Translations under genes and position numbers: made by a program
Origin: a phage
Direction: 5' to 3' (one strand)
Length of the DNA: 64,000 nucleotides
Assembly: GCA_036436775.1 (NCBI GenBank)
Contig: GCA_036436775.1_3676.1
Shown here: positions 8,320-51,143 of the stretch, piece by piece
Numbering within the stretch: position 1 is the stretch's first letter
Layout: each line of letters opens with the position of its first letter
The notes under the pieces: generated by a model
The model's input: only the letters and a program-made list of their open reading frames with translations
What the model was told of the DNA's origin: nothing
Databases searched by the model: none

Positions 8320-9369
8320 ATGAATTTAACACCTCGCAGCACCATGGTACACGGCATGAAAGAAAAACAGAACGGTTTCGAACCTATGAGTAATAAAATG
8401 TTCGGTATGCCGGGTGGTATTATGGAAACATACAGCTACCCAACACCAGTTGTTGACCACGTTCTTTATATTGACGATTTGGAAGACTTACAAGATCATA
8501 TGTCTCGTCTGCAGACGATCCGTATGGCTCAGCCGGAAGAAAGCATTCGGGTGATCATCAATAGCCCTGGAGGTTGCGTGCACATTGCAATGGCTTATCT
8601 GCAGGCATTCCGCGAGTCTCAGGCAAGCGTTGTTGCACATGCTGAAGGGATGTGCTGCTCTGCTGGAACAATCTTATGGCTTGGTTGCAAAGAACGTACT
8701 GTGGCTCCGGACACAGAATTTATGTTCCACTACTATCAAGGTGGCACTTATGGTAACGGTGTGAACATGAATACTCAGGTCAGCTACTGGAAAAAACGTT
8801 TTGAACGCCTGATCGAAAAATACTACGGTGGGGTGCTGACAGAAGATGAGATCGCATCCATCACAGCTGGCGGTGAAGTGTGGTTAGATGGAGAAGAGCT
8901 GGCATCTAGAACTGGTGCTATCATTCTGGACGATGAAAACATTCAGCGCATTCAGAATGGACAGAAACCGAAAAAGCTTTTGGCAAAAAGTGATGAAGAA
9001 GGTGTGCTAGGCGAAGCAGGCCTGCCAGAGATTCACCAATGCACATCTCTGGACGAGCTGGTTCATGCTGTTGAGTCTGCAAAAGCAAATGGTATGAAAG
9101 ACGATGTTCACACTGTGTTCCTGAATCTGCAGATGGAAAGTGGTGAGACCGTCCGGATCGCCCTGGATGAAATTACTTCAGAAGATCTGCAGCGATTCTC
9201 TGTCGTCGAACTTCAGGATATTCTGTCTCAATTGAAGACTACTCTGAACGGCGGTGAAGAGGTTAAGGTGAAAGACAAGACCCGCAAGCGTCTGATGGAC
9301 AATATCATTAAAACAGCAAAAGAGCTCAATGAAAAAATCCTGGGTGCAGGAATTGTCGAAGAAGCTTAA
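8320..9369 (+). CDS. ClpP-family serine peptidase-like protein with ~150-aa C-terminal extension
   Basis: 349-aa ORF; INSPGG motif, catalytic-Ser context MCCSAGT, His context MFHYY, matching ClpP/S14 fold order. Confidence 0.7.
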   Translation: MNLTPRSTMVHGMKEKQNGFEPMSNKMFGMPGGIMETYSYPTPVVDHVLYIDDLEDLQDHMSRLQTIRMAQPEESIRVIINSPGGCVHIAMAYLQAFRESQASVVAHAEGMCCSAGTILWLGCKERTVAPDTEFMFHYYQGGTYGNGVNMNTQVSYWKKRFERLIEKYYGGVLTEDEIASITAGGEVWLDGEELASRTGAIILDDENIQRIQNGQKPKKLLAKSDEEGVLGEAGLPEIHQCTSLDELVHAVESAKANGMKDDVHTVFLNLQMESGETVRIALDEITSEDLQRFSVVELQDILSQLKTTLNGGEEVKVKDKTRKRLMDNIIKTAKELNEKILGAGIVEEA

Positions 9370-9420: not shown

Positions 9421-9954
9421 ATGACTTGTGCTAGAAAACCTGATGAACAACGTAACGCATACGATGAGTATGTGACACCGGAGTGGTGTGCAGAAGGACT
9501 GTATGACCTTATTCCGTTCCCAGAGGACTGGACCTACTTAGAGCCTTGCAGGAATAGTGCCTCAGGTGTGTTCTACTCCCGTATGCCGTTAGGATCTGCA
9601 TGGGGAGAAATCCAAGAAGGTGTTGACTATCTGAATACAGAATACAACCATGTTGACTGTATTATCACCAACCCACCATACAGTCTGGCCCGTGAGTTCG
9701 TAGACAAGGCGTTGAAAGATGCTGACGTAGTTATTATGCTTTTACGTCTTAATTTTCTGGAAAGCAAAGCCAGATTTGAATGGTGGCTTGATAATGCACC
9801 CACTACTGTGATCACAATATCTAAGCGTCCATCATTTCAATCAAATGGCAGAACTGACGGGCAAGCATATGCATATTTTGTGTGGGATAAGAAAAACCGT
9901 TTAGACTTGCCGCCGTTTATGTGGTTGGCACCTCCAGAGGTAGACCTGAAATGA
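9421..9954 (+). CDS. Small phage-type DNA N6-adenine methyltransferase
   Basis: 177-aa ORF with catalytic motif ITNPPYS (NPPY). Confidence 0.65.
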   Translation: MTCARKPDEQRNAYDEYVTPEWCAEGLYDLIPFPEDWTYLEPCRNSASGVFYSRMPLGSAWGEIQEGVDYLNTEYNHVDCIITNPPYSLAREFVDKALKDADVVIMLLRLNFLESKARFEWWLDNAPTTVITISKRPSFQSNGRTDGQAYAYFVWDKKNRLDLPPFMWLAPPEVDLK

Positions 9955-46664: not shown

Positions 46665-48743
46665 TTAAAAAGGTGTTTCATCGTCTTCAAAACCTGGAAC
46701 AGGGTCAGAGGACGGATCATCATACGGAAGGTCTTCCTGTGTGTCAACAGGGTTAACAGTAGGAGTTACAACCTTATCAGCCACAACCCTACCTACAGGT
46801 GTTTCTACAACTGCGTGCTCTTGATCCTCGAACATAGCTTGAGGTCTCCAAACAACCTCCCCACCTTCGCCGTCTGTGAACATCTGCATTTCTTTGTCCC
46901 AGTACCAGTTGCTGGCATCGTGGAACTTACCTGTGTGGGGATCCATAACTAAGGTATCCGCAATGCCTAACGTTTTTGCTGGGCGGTTTTTAAGACCTAC
47001 CAGTCGGACACGTCCACGGGAACGATCCACCATCTCTTCTGCCTCCACCCCAACAACTACCCAGCTAAGTTGCTCCAATCCGGCACTACCCCGAAGGTTC
47101 TCTTTTCGTACAGGATACCAGAAAGGTAACGGATTCCCATCCTTGTCCTTTGGAGGCACAATCTCTGTGCGTTTCAGGTGAGCGATCACCAAGATAAATA
47201 CATTAAACTGCTTACAGAACGCGGCTAGTTGCGTCATAGCCATGTCAAGTTCTTTGCGCTCATCCTTAACATTAAGCCCTGAAATTACCATGGACAGGTG
47301 ATCCAGCACAATGTAACGGCAGTGATACAGACACACCATTTGTTTAAGCTTAGTGATCAACTCATCTACAGGAATAGACCCAAAATGCTTGAACACTTTG
47401 ATTTTTCCCGCCTTGGCCCAAGATTGGTGAATCTCGGCATGCTCCTGATCAGTCAGGAACTGACTAGGGTCTTCAACAAACTCTTTAACATCAAACCCCA
47501 ACTGGTTGGCGTATAGAGAGTTAATTGCTTCCTCAGGGTCCTCTTCAAGGTGAATCAGACACAGGCGATCATCCTCTTCATAATCATCGGCTTTAGGGCA
47601 TGTCGGATCCATCAAGTATTTTGCAATGCAATGTTCTAGTTTCTTGGCTACAGTTGTTTTACCACCGCCAGATGGGCCTGTCAGCATCATCAAGGTGCCT
47701 TTGTGGAGTCCTTTCAGCATCTTCTGCAATTTAGGGAACTCCGCGCTGATATCTACGCCATTAGAAGTCTTCTTACGAAGAGATTCAATGGAGAAGTCTT
47801 CTAAATCAGATACAGCATCGGGCACATATTTGACTGGGTGACGGAACATGTTGACAATATCTTCCAGCTTTTTAGCCTTCAGCATGTCACGGATATCTTT
47901 TACACCGTCAGGGTCGTTTACCTCACTGGGGTATTCCACGTGGTAAACGTTATCAGCCATCAAAAATGCCGCGATATTATGTGTGGCTTCAACACCTTTG
48001 ATAACGTGTTTTTGCTTCTCTACCTCGTTAGCTGCATCGTTGTCCATTGCAAGGACCACTGTTCCGTAGCTACGGATAAATTTCTCATTGTTTGCAAAAG
48101 TATCTACTGCGTTTGCACATCCACAGTTAATTCCAACAAAAGGTAGACAGGGTTTTCCTGCCAGATCACCTCCGTTGATAACTGCATCGATCCCGTCCTG
48201 GACCTCTTTAGCCCACTGCTTAACCTTTGCTGGGGCCTTGGCATTAGTGAGAATCCCTTTTACTTGTATCTGATATGCAGCCTGCCACGCTGCAATAACA
48301 TCACCTTCCCCCTCACAAACGTTAATTTGCTTACGGTTGTTGGAAGATGCACACAGCTTTTGACCAAACATCTGGGAGTTAGCCTTCACGATCCCAACCG
48401 TCGTAAAGTGCCCACGTTGCTCTTTAGGAATCGTCCAGTCACGCTTTTTGAAACCGGATAGATTTCCGTAGCGGTCGTAATATGGGAAATATGTTGCAGT
48501 GACTGTCACACCGTCTTCTTGGGACAATGCTGATCGCACACCAAAATATTGTGCAGCCATCAGACCGATGTTTTGTTGCGGGACAGGGACAATTTTAGTA
48601 TTTTCTAAAACAGTCTCTACAGTTTCAACTTCTTTTTCATCACGATAGTCTCGTTTCACACTTCCCCCACTTTTATACTTAGTTGCTTTCGGGTTTGGCT
48701 CACCGAAACGGTTGTATGCAGATGCCATAAATTTACTTCCCAT
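46665..48743 (-). CDS. DNA primase-helicase (TOPRIM primase + DnaB-like helicase)
   Basis: 692-aa ORF; TOPRIM acidic motifs (VCEGEGD, LAMDNDAAN), Walker A GPSGGGKTT, Walker B VLDHLS. Confidence 0.75.
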   Translation of the reverse strand: MGSKFMASAYNRFGEPNPKATKYKSGGSVKRDYRDEKEVETVETVLENTKIVPVPQQNIGLMAAQYFGVRSALSQEDGVTVTATYFPYYDRYGNLSGFKKRDWTIPKEQRGHFTTVGIVKANSQMFGQKLCASSNNRKQINVCEGEGDVIAAWQAAYQIQVKGILTNAKAPAKVKQWAKEVQDGIDAVINGGDLAGKPCLPFVGINCGCANAVDTFANNEKFIRSYGTVVLAMDNDAANEVEKQKHVIKGVEATHNIAAFLMADNVYHVEYPSEVNDPDGVKDIRDMLKAKKLEDIVNMFRHPVKYVPDAVSDLEDFSIESLRKKTSNGVDISAEFPKLQKMLKGLHKGTLMMLTGPSGGGKTTVAKKLEHCIAKYLMDPTCPKADDYEEDDRLCLIHLEEDPEEAINSLYANQLGFDVKEFVEDPSQFLTDQEHAEIHQSWAKAGKIKVFKHFGSIPVDELITKLKQMVCLYHCRYIVLDHLSMVISGLNVKDERKELDMAMTQLAAFCKQFNVFILVIAHLKRTEIVPPKDKDGNPLPFWYPVRKENLRGSAGLEQLSWVVVGVEAEEMVDRSRGRVRLVGLKNRPAKTLGIADTLVMDPHTGKFHDASNWYWDKEMQMFTDGEGGEVVWRPQAMFEDQEHAVVETPVGRVVADKVVTPTVNPVDTQEDLPYDDPSSDPVPGFEDDETPF

Positions 48744-49527
48744 TAATTCTGCTCCTTACTACAGGCTCGTTTGCTAAGAATACGGCTTTTGCCCAGCCAC
48801 GGGGTGTGAGGCTTCGGATCATCTTCGTCCTTGCACTTTTTCCACCTAGCTTAGCGTGTTGCATGGAATAACCGCTAACCACATCAACTATTTGCGGGAC
48901 AGGTTTTGTGGCCGGGATTATAAATCCATTACCTATCCATCCGCAAGTTATTTTTGGATAGGCATCGCGTGGAGCTATAAATTCAGGAAACCATGGGTTT
49001 ACATCATCTTCCGGTAAATACCCGCCATAATCAGAAGGGTGAAAACGGTAGTCAGGTTTGCGCCACAATGTGGACATAACTCCAACAGGGTTCTCTACAT
49101 GCCACGGGCAATCGTAAATCTCTCCCAACTCTTCTGCAACCCGAGCATCCTTTACAGCATTAATTTGGATCAGCGGATCCTTAGCCAGTTTCTTCTTAAA
49201 GTGTGCAGCACCGGACACCGCTAAGTGAGTGCACGGAGGAAATGCAAGAACAAAGTCCGGAGCTGGGTACATGCAGAAAGTTTCCTGAGGAAACCATGGA
49301 TCAATCCAATAATCTACATAGTGAATATTTGGATGATCGGTTATCACCTCTGCATAACTGCCGTGGTCAGCACCTTCTGCGTTAAAGCACAGGCACAGAT
49401 ACCCAGCTTTTGCCCAGTCAATGACTGCACCTCCAGACCCGTCAAATAGACTCCACACAACACCTTTGTGGTAGTGCTCTTTATAGATAAATTTCAATTT
49501 GCTGTCTCCTAATGCAAAAAGCCCCAC
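48733..49527 (-). CDS. DNA cytosine-C5 methyltransferase-like protein (atypical)
   Basis: Motif I-like SLFDGSGG, motif IV-like PPCTH (not canonical PCQ), motif VI-like HVENPVG; short at 264 aa. Confidence 0.45.
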   Translation of the reverse strand: MGLFALGDSKLKFIYKEHYHKGVVWSLFDGSGGAVIDWAKAGYLCLCFNAEGADHGSYAEVITDHPNIHYVDYWIDPWFPQETFCMYPAPDFVLAFPPCTHLAVSGAAHFKKKLAKDPLIQINAVKDARVAEELGEIYDCPWHVENPVGVMSTLWRKPDYRFHPSDYGGYLPEDDVNPWFPEFIAPRDAYPKITCGWIGNGFIIPATKPVPQIVDVVSGYSMQHAKLGGKSARTKMIRSLTPRGWAKAVFLANEPVVRSRINGK

Positions 49528-49548
49528 CCTTTCGGGCAGGGCCTAGTG

Positions 49549-50031
49549 TTAAACCCGGATACCTATTGTATACTCGGTGGATACCAATGTCAAATCTAAA
49601 TTTAAAATTTCTTGCATCTCATAATATGCGTCCAGGGTTAGATACATTTCCCCATCCTTTTCTACATACTTGTCCAAGTGCTTGAGGCATTTCGGATAAC
49701 TATCAAGTGCAGCTTTCAGGCACTCAAACTCTGTGCTGTTGATGAATCCTTCCATCTTGGCTACCCGTTCTGGGGTAATGATAGCACTGTAGTGAGATTT
49801 AGCTTCCTGAATGCAATGGGTCCAAGCATCAACCTTCTCTTCGAAAAGTCCAAAGAACTTCTTTTTGGTGAGCTTCAGATTCTTTAAGTGCTTAAGCACT
49901 CGGTTGCCGATTACAGCCACATCACGAAACTTAAGAATCACTTTGTCGATATCTTCGCGACCTATTTTCACAAAACAGGCCTTACACATTTCAGGGGAGG
50001 AATAACCAACTTTCCACATAAAATCTGACAT
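49549..50031 (-). CDS. Hypothetical protein
   Basis: 160-aa ORF with GGAGAAGG RBS. Confidence 0.6.
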   Translation of the reverse strand: MSDFMWKVGYSSPEMCKACFVKIGREDIDKVILKFRDVAVIGNRVLKHLKNLKLTKKKFFGLFEEKVDAWTHCIQEAKSHYSAIITPERVAKMEGFINSTEFECLKAALDSYPKCLKHLDKYVEKDGEMYLTLDAYYEMQEILNLDLTLVSTEYTIGIRV

Positions 50032-50439: not shown

Positions 50440-50741
50440 CAGAAACCTCCAACTTCTTCAGCAAATGCAGCTGCTGTCGTCGCTGCATCCAGATAGGACT
50501 CTAGTTCACGGGCTGCACGTTTGTAAATTGAGTGGCGCATATCGTTTGGTAGTTGGTGGAAGTCCACCTCTTCACCGTTGTGGTAAACACGCACATCGGT
50601 AATTTGTCTAAATCCGTAATAGTCAACATCAGAGTCACGGCACTCCGAGTCTGGCAACTGGACAACTGCTTGAGCTTCCACAGTAAACATATCGTCAAGT
50701 TCGAAATCGATTTCAAAAGTGTATGGTTTATAACGTTTCAT
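50439..50741 (-). CDS. Hypothetical protein
   Basis: 100-aa ORF with AAGGAAGCAC RBS. Confidence 0.6.
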   Translation of the reverse strand: MKRYKPYTFEIDFELDDMFTVEAQAVVQLPDSECRDSDVDYYGFRQITDVRVYHNGEEVDFHQLPNDMRHSIYKRAARELESYLDAATTAAAFAEEVGGF

Positions 50742-50801
50742 CGTTTAGTGCTTCCTTAGTTTTTGTGGGGAGGAGTGCCTCCCCTTTAGACTAACATCTT
50801 A

Positions 50802-51143
50802 CTACTGAAGGTCTTCAGAGTCAAGCTCAAAAAGAATCAAACTGTGCATGCTTGCAGAGAGATCAACGCACCCTGCAATAATAAGGGTCTGATAGTAAGG
50901 TTCAGCACCCTCAATGTCTTCGTTAAAATCTACAACAAGATAGTCACCTTTGTTAAAGGTGTATTTGTCCGATGTAAACGCAAAACCTGCCCAGTCCCCT
51001 ACTGCAGGATCTTTATCAGTCACCTTTGTTAGCAGTAGGTCTTTTTCACGAGATCTTTTAGTAAAATCGTGAATCACAACATCCTTCTCTTCAGGAGTTG
51101 GACTACCACACACGTAGTTAACTATATTTCTCCACAAACTCAT
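50802..51143 (-). CDS. Hypothetical protein
   Basis: 113-aa ORF overlapping helicase stop. Confidence 0.6.
   Translation of the reverse strand: MSLWRNIVNYVCGSPTPEEKDVVIHDFTKRSREKDLLLTKVTDKDPAVGDWAGFAFTSDKYTFNKGDYLVVDFNEDIEGAEPYYQTLIIAGCVDLSASMHSLILFELDSEDLQ

Follow-up and report, generated by a model that had tools for sequence, protein, structure and literature searches.

A compact Dcm-like cytosine-5 methyltransferase, probably active, encoded among the replication genes of an rV5-like Escherichia coli phage

The methyltransferase gene and its start codon

Here we analysed a 64,000-nucleotide stretch of phage DNA (the window; contig GCA_036436775.1_3676.1 of GenBank assembly GCA_036436775.1), which is part of an rV5-like myovirus of the genus Vequintavirus, and in particular an open reading frame (ORF) on its minus strand (48733..49527, 264 amino acids) for which the first-pass annotation had proposed a cytosine-5 (C5) methyltransferase-like protein with a variant catalytic motif. 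The ORF was present as described there, with FDGSGG at residues 28-33, FPPCTH at 96-101 and ENP at 145-147. The gene is already known: it is the ordinary, conserved and already annotated Dcm-like methyltransferase gene of rV5-type E. coli phages, with one characterised relative, and our analyses indicate that it probably encodes an active, S-adenosylmethionine (SAM)-dependent, orphan DNA (cytosine-5) methyltransferase of a compact phage family. The coding sequence and the features before it are the following.

48733..49497, minus strand: compact Dcm-like C5 cytosine methyltransferase, likely coding sequence of 254 amino acids with a TTG start (ORF list, Shine-Dalgarno sequence and TTG, Bas48 annotation, PHROG 757 and fold)
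49506..49510, minus strand: AGGAG as Shine-Dalgarno sequence, 8 nt ahead of the TTG start codon (read from the sequence)
49519..49544, minus strand: terminator-like GC-rich hairpin with a T-run and an 11-pair stem (7 GC), located after the upstream gene (end at 49549) and ahead of the methyltransferase start
49565..49593, minus strand: sigma-70-like promoter match TTGACA-17-TACAAT, 11 of 12 positions, at the 3' end of the upstream gene (consensus match only)

The extent first given for the gene held as far as the ORF is concerned, but its start at GTG 49527, which yields the longest possible ORF, probably lies ten codons too far upstream. Translation most likely begins at the TTG at 49497, because the GTG falls inside the terminator-like hairpin (49544-49519) while AGGAG stands 8 nt before the TTG, and because the GenBank annotation of the Bas48 ortholog (765 nt, that is, 254 amino acids) and the closest database protein (P0001, 254 amino acids, beginning MKFIYKE) use this same start. 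Residues 1-13 of the AlphaFold2 model of the 264-residue form were disordered, with a predicted local distance difference test score (pLDDT) below 50. The promoter match falls in a stretch where GenBank records of rV5 annotate a promoter; it lies just upstream of the hairpin, both being directly before the methyltransferase start, and transcripts from it would need to read through the hairpin.

Sequence motifs and predicted fold

Motifs I, IV and VI occur in canonical order and spacing, and two further stretches toward the C-terminus are candidates for motifs VIII and X. Residue numbers here and below are those of the 264-residue ORF, those of the 254-residue protein being 10 lower (C99 = C89). 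Alignments made with hhalign are given against E. coli Dcm, the catalytic domain of DNMT3A and CmoX, the cytosine C5-carboxymethyltransferase of Synechococcus phage S-B43 (PDB 8YF3).

49429..49446, minus strand: motif I, FDGSGG, residues 28-33, SAM-binding loop, aligned on LFAGIGG of Dcm, FAGGGG of CmoX and SLFDGIATG of DNMT3A
49228..49242, minus strand: motif IV, FPPCT, residues 96-100, with catalytic Cys99, aligned with PCQ of Dcm, PCS of CmoX and PCN of DNMT3A
49087..49095, minus strand: motif VI, ENP, residues 145-147, with the catalytic Glu, aligned with ENV of Dcm and CmoX; E145 equals E128 of the Dcm-like enzyme of phage K42
48937..48969, minus strand: RDAYPKITCGW, residues 187-197, putative motif VIII strand with K192 for the canonical Arg (sequence pattern and predicted secondary structure)
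48802..48819, minus strand: IRSLTP, residues 237-242, putative motif X with Arg238 at the canonical Asn position of GN[AS]VxP (pattern and predicted secondary structure)

The pattern SDYGG...RDAYPKxTCxW would correspond to the DYGxPQ...QxRxR region (motifs VII and VIII), with Lys192 replacing Arg, and the C-terminal xxKxIRS(L/A)TPRGFAxAV would be motif X (GN[A/S]VxP and then the last helix), with Arg238 where Asn is expected. In the predicted model IRSLTP sits in the loop between the two C-terminal helices; it falls on GRMVPP of CmoX in a low-confidence MAC alignment and its pattern is like GRSWSVP of DNMT3A. The 35-40 or so residues between the motif VIII strand and these helices are all the room that the protein has for target recognition. 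Motif I reads FDGSGG in the window protein versus FDxTG in the broader family.

The AlphaFold2 model, built on 26 relatives (pLDDT 86, predicted template modelling score 0.86), has a class-I methyltransferase fold with the topology of C5-methyltransferases, and its top structural matches in Foldseek were all cytosine-5 methyltransferases, among them the catalytic domains of DNMT3A and DNMT3B (E about 2e-6). Twelve of the 26 close relatives matched the Pfam family PF00145 at E <= 0.1 (best E = 1.3e-6), and three homologs carry a precomputed match to it. With hhalign we obtained E = 3.5e-5 over motifs I-VI against the CmoX profile and E = 3e-4 against DNMT3A; comparisons with single sequences were not significant for Dcm (E = 0.15-0.17, motifs I-VI only) or HhaI (E = 0.21), the C-terminal alignments from these last two being unreliable. 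The likeness in motifs is not due to chance, since their canonical order and spacing are accompanied by the PF00145 matches of relatives and by the predicted fold. Judged from sequence and model, the protein truly belongs to the C5-methyltransferase superfamily, but as a divergent member lying below the thresholds of curated hidden Markov models (HMMs). The C5-methyltransferase-like identity first proposed is thus backed by family HMM, relatives and fold, and at 254 amino acids the protein is indeed, as had been remarked, unusually short for a cytosine methyltransferase.

Among known enzymes the catalytic domains of DNMT3A and DNMT3B are the best structural match. They too have a small recognition region, and they share with the phage protein LFDG in motif I, PC[N/T]DL[S/A] in motif IV and, in the putative motif X, Arg-Ser, peculiarities that fit the structural ranking with DNMT3A/B on top. 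The two are nevertheless only about 11-14% identical, and DNMT3 has ENV, a recognisable motif IX, regulatory domains and a hetero- or homotetrameric assembly. In the case of E. coli Dcm and M.EcoRII (CCWGG) the same chemistry is expected, GenBank annotators name the phage gene "Dcm-like", and the K42 homolog acts at a stem containing CCTGG; Dcm, however, has 472 amino acids with a full recognition domain, compared with 254 in the phage protein, and its hhalign comparison with the family was not significant.

A large and compact phage family

The only confident HMM match of the protein was PHROG 757, "DNA methyltransferase" (E = 1e-86, covering residues 10-261), so that the HMM search which the first-pass annotation had set as a check gave no placement in a non-methyltransferase family. 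The protein is a member of this very large, compact (about 225-255 amino acids) and phage-specific family: its match to PHROG 757 is full length and it has all of the family-invariant residues. More than 3,500 homologs of 225-260 amino acids were found in a word-indexed search, an exhaustive profile search yielded 2,032 clusters when grouped at 50% identity, with 924 below 1e-10, and 1,502 of the 50,697 phage records searched with tblastn contained the protein. The carriers in this last search included Vequintavirinae, myoviruses of Phapecoctavirus size, Drexlerviridae, Dhillonvirus and siphoviruses of the size of Klebsiella Webervirus, together with some phages of Vibrio, Shewanella, Aeromonas and Arthrobacter.

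Conservation was counted in 86-116 diverse representatives of the family. C99, E145, P164, Y190, W197 and P205 were invariant, and F96, P97, T100, G106, K113, N146, P147, D188, K192, T194, R238, S239, P242, G244 and A248 were each conserved in more than about 90%; within the putative motif VIII, D188, Y190, K192, T194 and W197 ranged between 90 and 100%. The catalytic Cys has Thr as its next residue in 100 of 116 representatives, and FPPC-T, ENP and, toward the C-terminus, IRS-TP make up the consensus; PCT is thus the norm of the family and not a decayed PCQ. The gene is also under strong purifying selection: it differs from its Bas48 ortholog by 45 synonymous codons and two conservative replacements (dN/dS = 0.01).

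Scanning the long members of the family for domain fusions revealed nothing beyond an HNH endonuclease insertion and N-terminal tails of low complexity, and no fusion to the 177-residue adenine methyltransferase described below. Two members, P0254 and P0270, have N-terminal extensions of ~180 residues, rich in Ala, Pro, Ser and Glu and of low complexity, that look eukaryotic, and P0270 carries FPPCNDLS, with the same PCNDLS as DNMT3. These tails and the P0270 motif hint at a possible relationship between the compact phage family and DNMT3. A distant member, P0125, sits in the early region of a temperate T7-like element.

A characterised relative that produces 5-methylcytosine

The gene has a relative whose activity has been studied, in phage K42, whose genome is 95.4% identical to that of phage KarlJaspers (Bas06) (bioRxiv 10.1101/2023.08.16.553469). 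Mutants of K42 escaping the retron Ec86 had lesions, in four cases out of four, in or just upstream of a 711-bp gene for a "Dcm-like C5 cytosine methyltransferase"; expression of the protein raised the level of 5-methylcytosine (5mC) in the multicopy single-stranded DNA (msDNA) of the retron, as determined by liquid chromatography coupled to mass spectrometry (LC-MS) against a standard, and the quadruple mutant C82A/E128A/K175A/K176A gave no such rise. In the same study changing CCTGG in the msDNA stem abolished defence, over-expression of the K42 homolog was toxic to E. coli, and the authors modelled the enzyme on DNMT3A (bioRxiv 10.1101/2023.08.16.553469). A later paper cites the K42 methyltransferase finding as established.

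The product of the 711-bp gene of Bas06 is 53% identical to the window protein over its full length (E = 5e-86), and K42 residues C82, E128, K175 and K176 align with C99, E145, K192 and I193. The Bas06 enzyme shares FDGSG, CFN..ADHG, FPPCT, ENP and IRSLTPRG, and has KKTC where the window protein has KITC. The K42/Bas06 enzyme has 236 amino acids and belongs to a siphovirus (Drexlerviridae), whereas the window protein has 254 and belongs to a Vequintavirus myovirus. About half of the residues differ, and therefore the target sequence need not match. All of the residues of the window protein regarded as atypical are nonetheless compatible with SAM-dependent formation of 5mC, because the Bas06/K42 enzyme shares them and yields 5mC.

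Gene neighbourhood and distribution in related phages

Over 100 phage genomes in GenBank, those of rV5, LL12 and the BASEL phages among them, are 95-97% identical to the 2.5 kb around the gene; in these records it is variously named "hypothetical protein", "DNA methyltransferase", "putative site specific DNA methylase" and "Dcm-like C5 cytosine methyltransferase", and 114 of 118 close relatives have kept it. Dozens of unannotated GenBank records (MG0656xx) labelled "Campylobacter phage", with C. jejuni as host, have 95-100% identity with rV5-like phages of E. coli across these genes, and their labels are probably due to contamination or mislabelling. In the related Pectobacterium phage CB7 a pair of Dam and cytosine methylase had already been predicted by HHpred, and some members of Certrevirus are without the cytosine enzyme (PMC7344957), for which reason we consider the cytosine methyltransferase gene to be accessory.

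The neighbour immediately downstream is as follows.

46665..48743, minus strand: DNA primase/helicase gene (coordinates from the ORF list, annotation from Bas48)

The start of this gene overlaps the stop of the methyltransferase gene by 11 nt, which suggests co-transcription and translational coupling. A DNA polymerase gene follows the primase/helicase and a Dda/RecD-like helicase lies upstream of the methyltransferase, and these neighbours place the gene in the replication module. Helicase genes often adjoin methyltransferase homologs in several other phage groups as well. Two proteins of uncultured phages (BFVD A0A6J5SE15, 1397 amino acids, and A0A6J5NPY6, 1126 amino acids) have family-like methyltransferase domains fused to large helicase-type proteins, echoing the frequent helicase adjacency of the stand-alone gene.

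A small adenine methyltransferase, and another that the window lacks

The first-pass annotation had also pointed to a separate small adenine methyltransferase with an NPPY motif, and this gene was found where it had been placed.

9421..9954, plus strand: small NPPY N6-adenine methyltransferase, 177 amino acids (PHROG 799, E = 8e-67; NPPY at residues 84-87)

The protein is at least 99% identical in 109 phage records and has weak Pfam matches to Dam and EcoRI methylases (Dam PF05869, E = 1e-3, below the cut-off). In the Vequintavirus Bas51, retron-escape mutations D69G, D79G and T83P were located in "an N6 adenine methyltransferase", the T83P phage lost nearly all N6-methyladenine (m6A) at GATC in nanopore data, so that the enzyme is needed for this mark on virion DNA, and this enzyme triggers retrons Asa1 and Squ1 (PMC12548924). 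All three of the mutated residues, D69, D79 and T83 (which is the T in ITNPPY), recur in the 177-residue protein, while the other adenine methyltransferase of the genus (441 amino acids, DPPF) has C, G and E at positions 69, 79 and 83. The three matching residues and the genus-wide conservation would therefore equate the 177-residue protein with that of Bas51, and we infer that it is the corresponding GATC enzyme. Its gene comes after that of a ClpP-like protease (8320-9369, plus strand). In Bas54 a "putative glycosidase" lies ~1.2 kb downstream of the GATC methyltransferase gene, and the glycosidase gene co-mutated in Bas51 retron escapers (PMC12548924) may be this neighbour.

The gene for the 441-residue DPPF-type "putative N6 adenine methyltransferase" is present in Bas48 (L007:14235-15560) and missing from the window at 50741-50802, where the comparison of the two shows a clean indel of ~1.33 kb with a 9-bp overlap at the junction; no copy was found elsewhere in the window. 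In this genus the gene forms a methyltransferase cassette that varies between members. Among the 4-bp palindromes of the window GTAC ranks second in under-representation (118 observed versus 189 expected, ratio 0.62), and m6A was quantified in the Bas51 study at both GTAC and GATC (PMC12548924). The missing methyltransferase could be a GTAC enzyme, in which case its absence would leave this phage exposed at GTAC.

Sequence composition of the window

Over- and under-representation of palindromes in the window did not point to any cytosine target. The count of GATC is as expected (329 observed versus 339 expected), and that of CCWGG is near expectation (128 versus 149), which is uninformative on specificity. 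The symmetrised odds ratio of CpG is 0.74 in the window, with 1.15 for TpG/CpA, and reaches 1.26 in a 6-kb sample of the E. coli chromosome, 1.15 in T1 and 1.16 in Bas11. We considered CpG depletion as a footprint of CpG methylation and rejected it: Bas11, a member of Drexlerviridae that has the gene, equals T1, which is without it, so that the depletion shows no link to the methyltransferase family. Several GC-rich 6-bp palindromes are nearly absent from the window compared with a Markov expectation (GGCGCC 0 versus 6.3, TGGCCA 0 versus 8.4, CGATCG 1 versus 9.2, CGTACG 1 versus 6.2, GGGCCC 2 versus 8.5); this scarcity looks like restriction-site avoidance.

Probable activity and alternative explanations

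Taking the results from the motif, fold and family analyses together with the characterised relative, the explanation that we favour, and hold to be probable, is that the gene encodes an active, SAM-dependent, orphan C5-methyltransferase. By the mechanism of the C5-methyltransferase family, Cys99 of FPPCT, the equivalent of C82 in the K42 enzyme, would attack C6 of a flipped-out cytosine while Glu145 of ENP would protonate N3; Lys192, equivalent to K175 of K42, may stand in for the motif VIII Arg; and SAM, presumably held by FDGSGG, Asn49 and the IRS loop, would give its methyl group to C5. With almost no target-recognition domain, the enzyme would probably read a short motif, possibly as an oligomer. 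Its position in the replication module and the overlap with the primase/helicase gene suggest that it should act on newly replicated phage DNA, where, next to the separate 177-residue GATC adenine methyltransferase, it would leave virion DNA with two kinds of methyl marks. The activity of the window protein itself is what we infer from these analyses as a whole, and its benefit would presumably be protection from some restriction systems. The dual modification of phage DNA on adenine and cytosine suggested in the first-pass annotation is therefore plausible, given the residue matches with Bas51 for adenine and a 53%-identical homolog that makes 5mC in E. coli. The other suggestion made there, that the PCT variant could mean altered chemistry or an inactive protein, finds no support: Thr is found in 100 of 116 representatives, the active homolog has PPCT, dN/dS is 0.01, and other active enzymes also depart from PCQ, with PCN in DNMT3A and PCS in CmoX.

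Several observations weigh against this explanation. The window protein has no match in Pfam (no PF00145 at E <= 1) or NCBIfam, and a broad-family profile matched no solved C5-methyltransferase by sequence in the PDB, where the best hit from searches with the protein and two family profiles was DNMT3B over motifs I-IV (E = 0.12). Motif IX is not recognisable, the Asn of motif X is replaced by Arg, and the acid of motif II is Asn49 in this subfamily versus Asp in 102 of 116 representatives; the active Bas06 homolog likewise has Asn there. The K42 assay used over-expression, with msDNA and not phage DNA as the substrate, and CCWGG as the site of the K42 enzyme comes from analogy with host Dcm and mutagenesis of the msDNA site, not from direct determination of the motif. 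The literature that we found holds no report of 5mC or any other cytosine modification in virion DNA of Vequintavirinae, and these phages are exceptionally susceptible to the restriction systems tested (PMC8594841), so that a protective role is not evident.

In an unlikely, though not negligible, alternative, a competent C5-methyltransferase has a natural substrate other than double-stranded phage DNA (host DNA, single-stranded intermediates of replication or, in the manner of Dnmt2, tRNA or another RNA) and serves in regulation or takeover instead of self-protection. The minimal recognition domain, the persisting restriction sensitivity of Vequintavirinae and the toxicity of the over-expressed homolog to E. 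coli would agree with such a role, as would the fact that the one demonstrated substrate of the homolog is a small stem-loop msDNA; but this stem-loop is itself a DNA duplex, the best structural matches are DNA enzymes, and the gene lies among replication genes and beside helicases in several phage groups, with family-like domains fused to helicases. That the protein is an inactive or degenerate remnant, or a DNA-binding pseudo-enzyme, as the first-pass annotation had considered, would account for its short length, its lack of a Pfam match and its non-canonical residues at motifs II, IV, VIII and X. We regard this as very unlikely because of the dN/dS of 0.01 and the conservation of the gene in 114 of 118 close relatives; moreover, neither the catalytic Cys nor the catalytic Glu varies across about 2,000 clusters, and the active homolog has the same non-canonical residues.

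Different chemistry, which the match to CmoX had brought up, is just as improbable. The enzyme would in this case use carboxy-SAM (Cx-SAM) made by host CmoA and install 5-carboxymethylcytosine, alone or beside 5mC, by means of the motif X Arg. An Arg at this position binds the carboxymethyl group in CmoX, the same change turns M.MpeI and M.CviPI into carboxymethyltransferases, and a cationic residue there has been described as a generalizable route to the use of Cx-SAM (PMC13288465), which E. coli CmoA supplies in sufficient amounts for CmoX in vivo (PMC12783734). IRSLTP of the window protein lines up with GRMVPP of CmoX, R238 falling on R350, and the two proteins have in common a small hydroxyl residue behind the catalytic Cys (PCS in CmoX, PCT in the window protein) and the C5-methyltransferase fold. 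The alignment of R238 with R350 is, however, of low confidence, and DNMT3A and DNMT3B have the same Arg (GRSW) yet use SAM. CmoX has 372 amino acids, matches PF00145, carries the SPPC signature that defines it and is encoded beside CmoA and an amide ligase, none of which applies to the window protein: it has FPPC, and there is no gene for CmoA or an amide ligase in the annotated Vequintavirus region or in the neighbourhood of the distant family member P0125. The 53%-identical Bas06/K42 enzyme, with the same IRSLTPRG, CFN and PCT, gave 5mC by LC-MS in the cmoA-positive E. coli MG1655, an assay that looked only for 5mC (bioRxiv 10.1101/2023.08.16.553469). We accordingly downgraded Cx-SAM chemistry, since the homolog with the same residues yields 5mC and DNMT3A shares the Arg, and there is only a slim chance that the family-wide motif X Arg, together with the motif II Asn of the enterobacterial branch, lets compact enzymes accept Cx-SAM of the host. 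Were this the case, some 5-carboxymethylcytosine would be present in E. coli phages of the rV5-like, T1-like and Dhillonvirus groups in the absence of a phage-encoded CmoA.

An active C5-methyltransferase at this locus carries little weight as a discovery, because many rV5-like genomes already carry an annotation for the gene and a member of its family makes 5mC and triggers retron Ec86. Pfam and NCBIfam nonetheless miss this large compact family, whose signature consists of the PCT, ENP, Lys and Arg variants. The cytosine and adenine methyltransferase types of this phage are, furthermore, documented triggers of retron defence, which is relevant to the choice or engineering of such phages for therapy.

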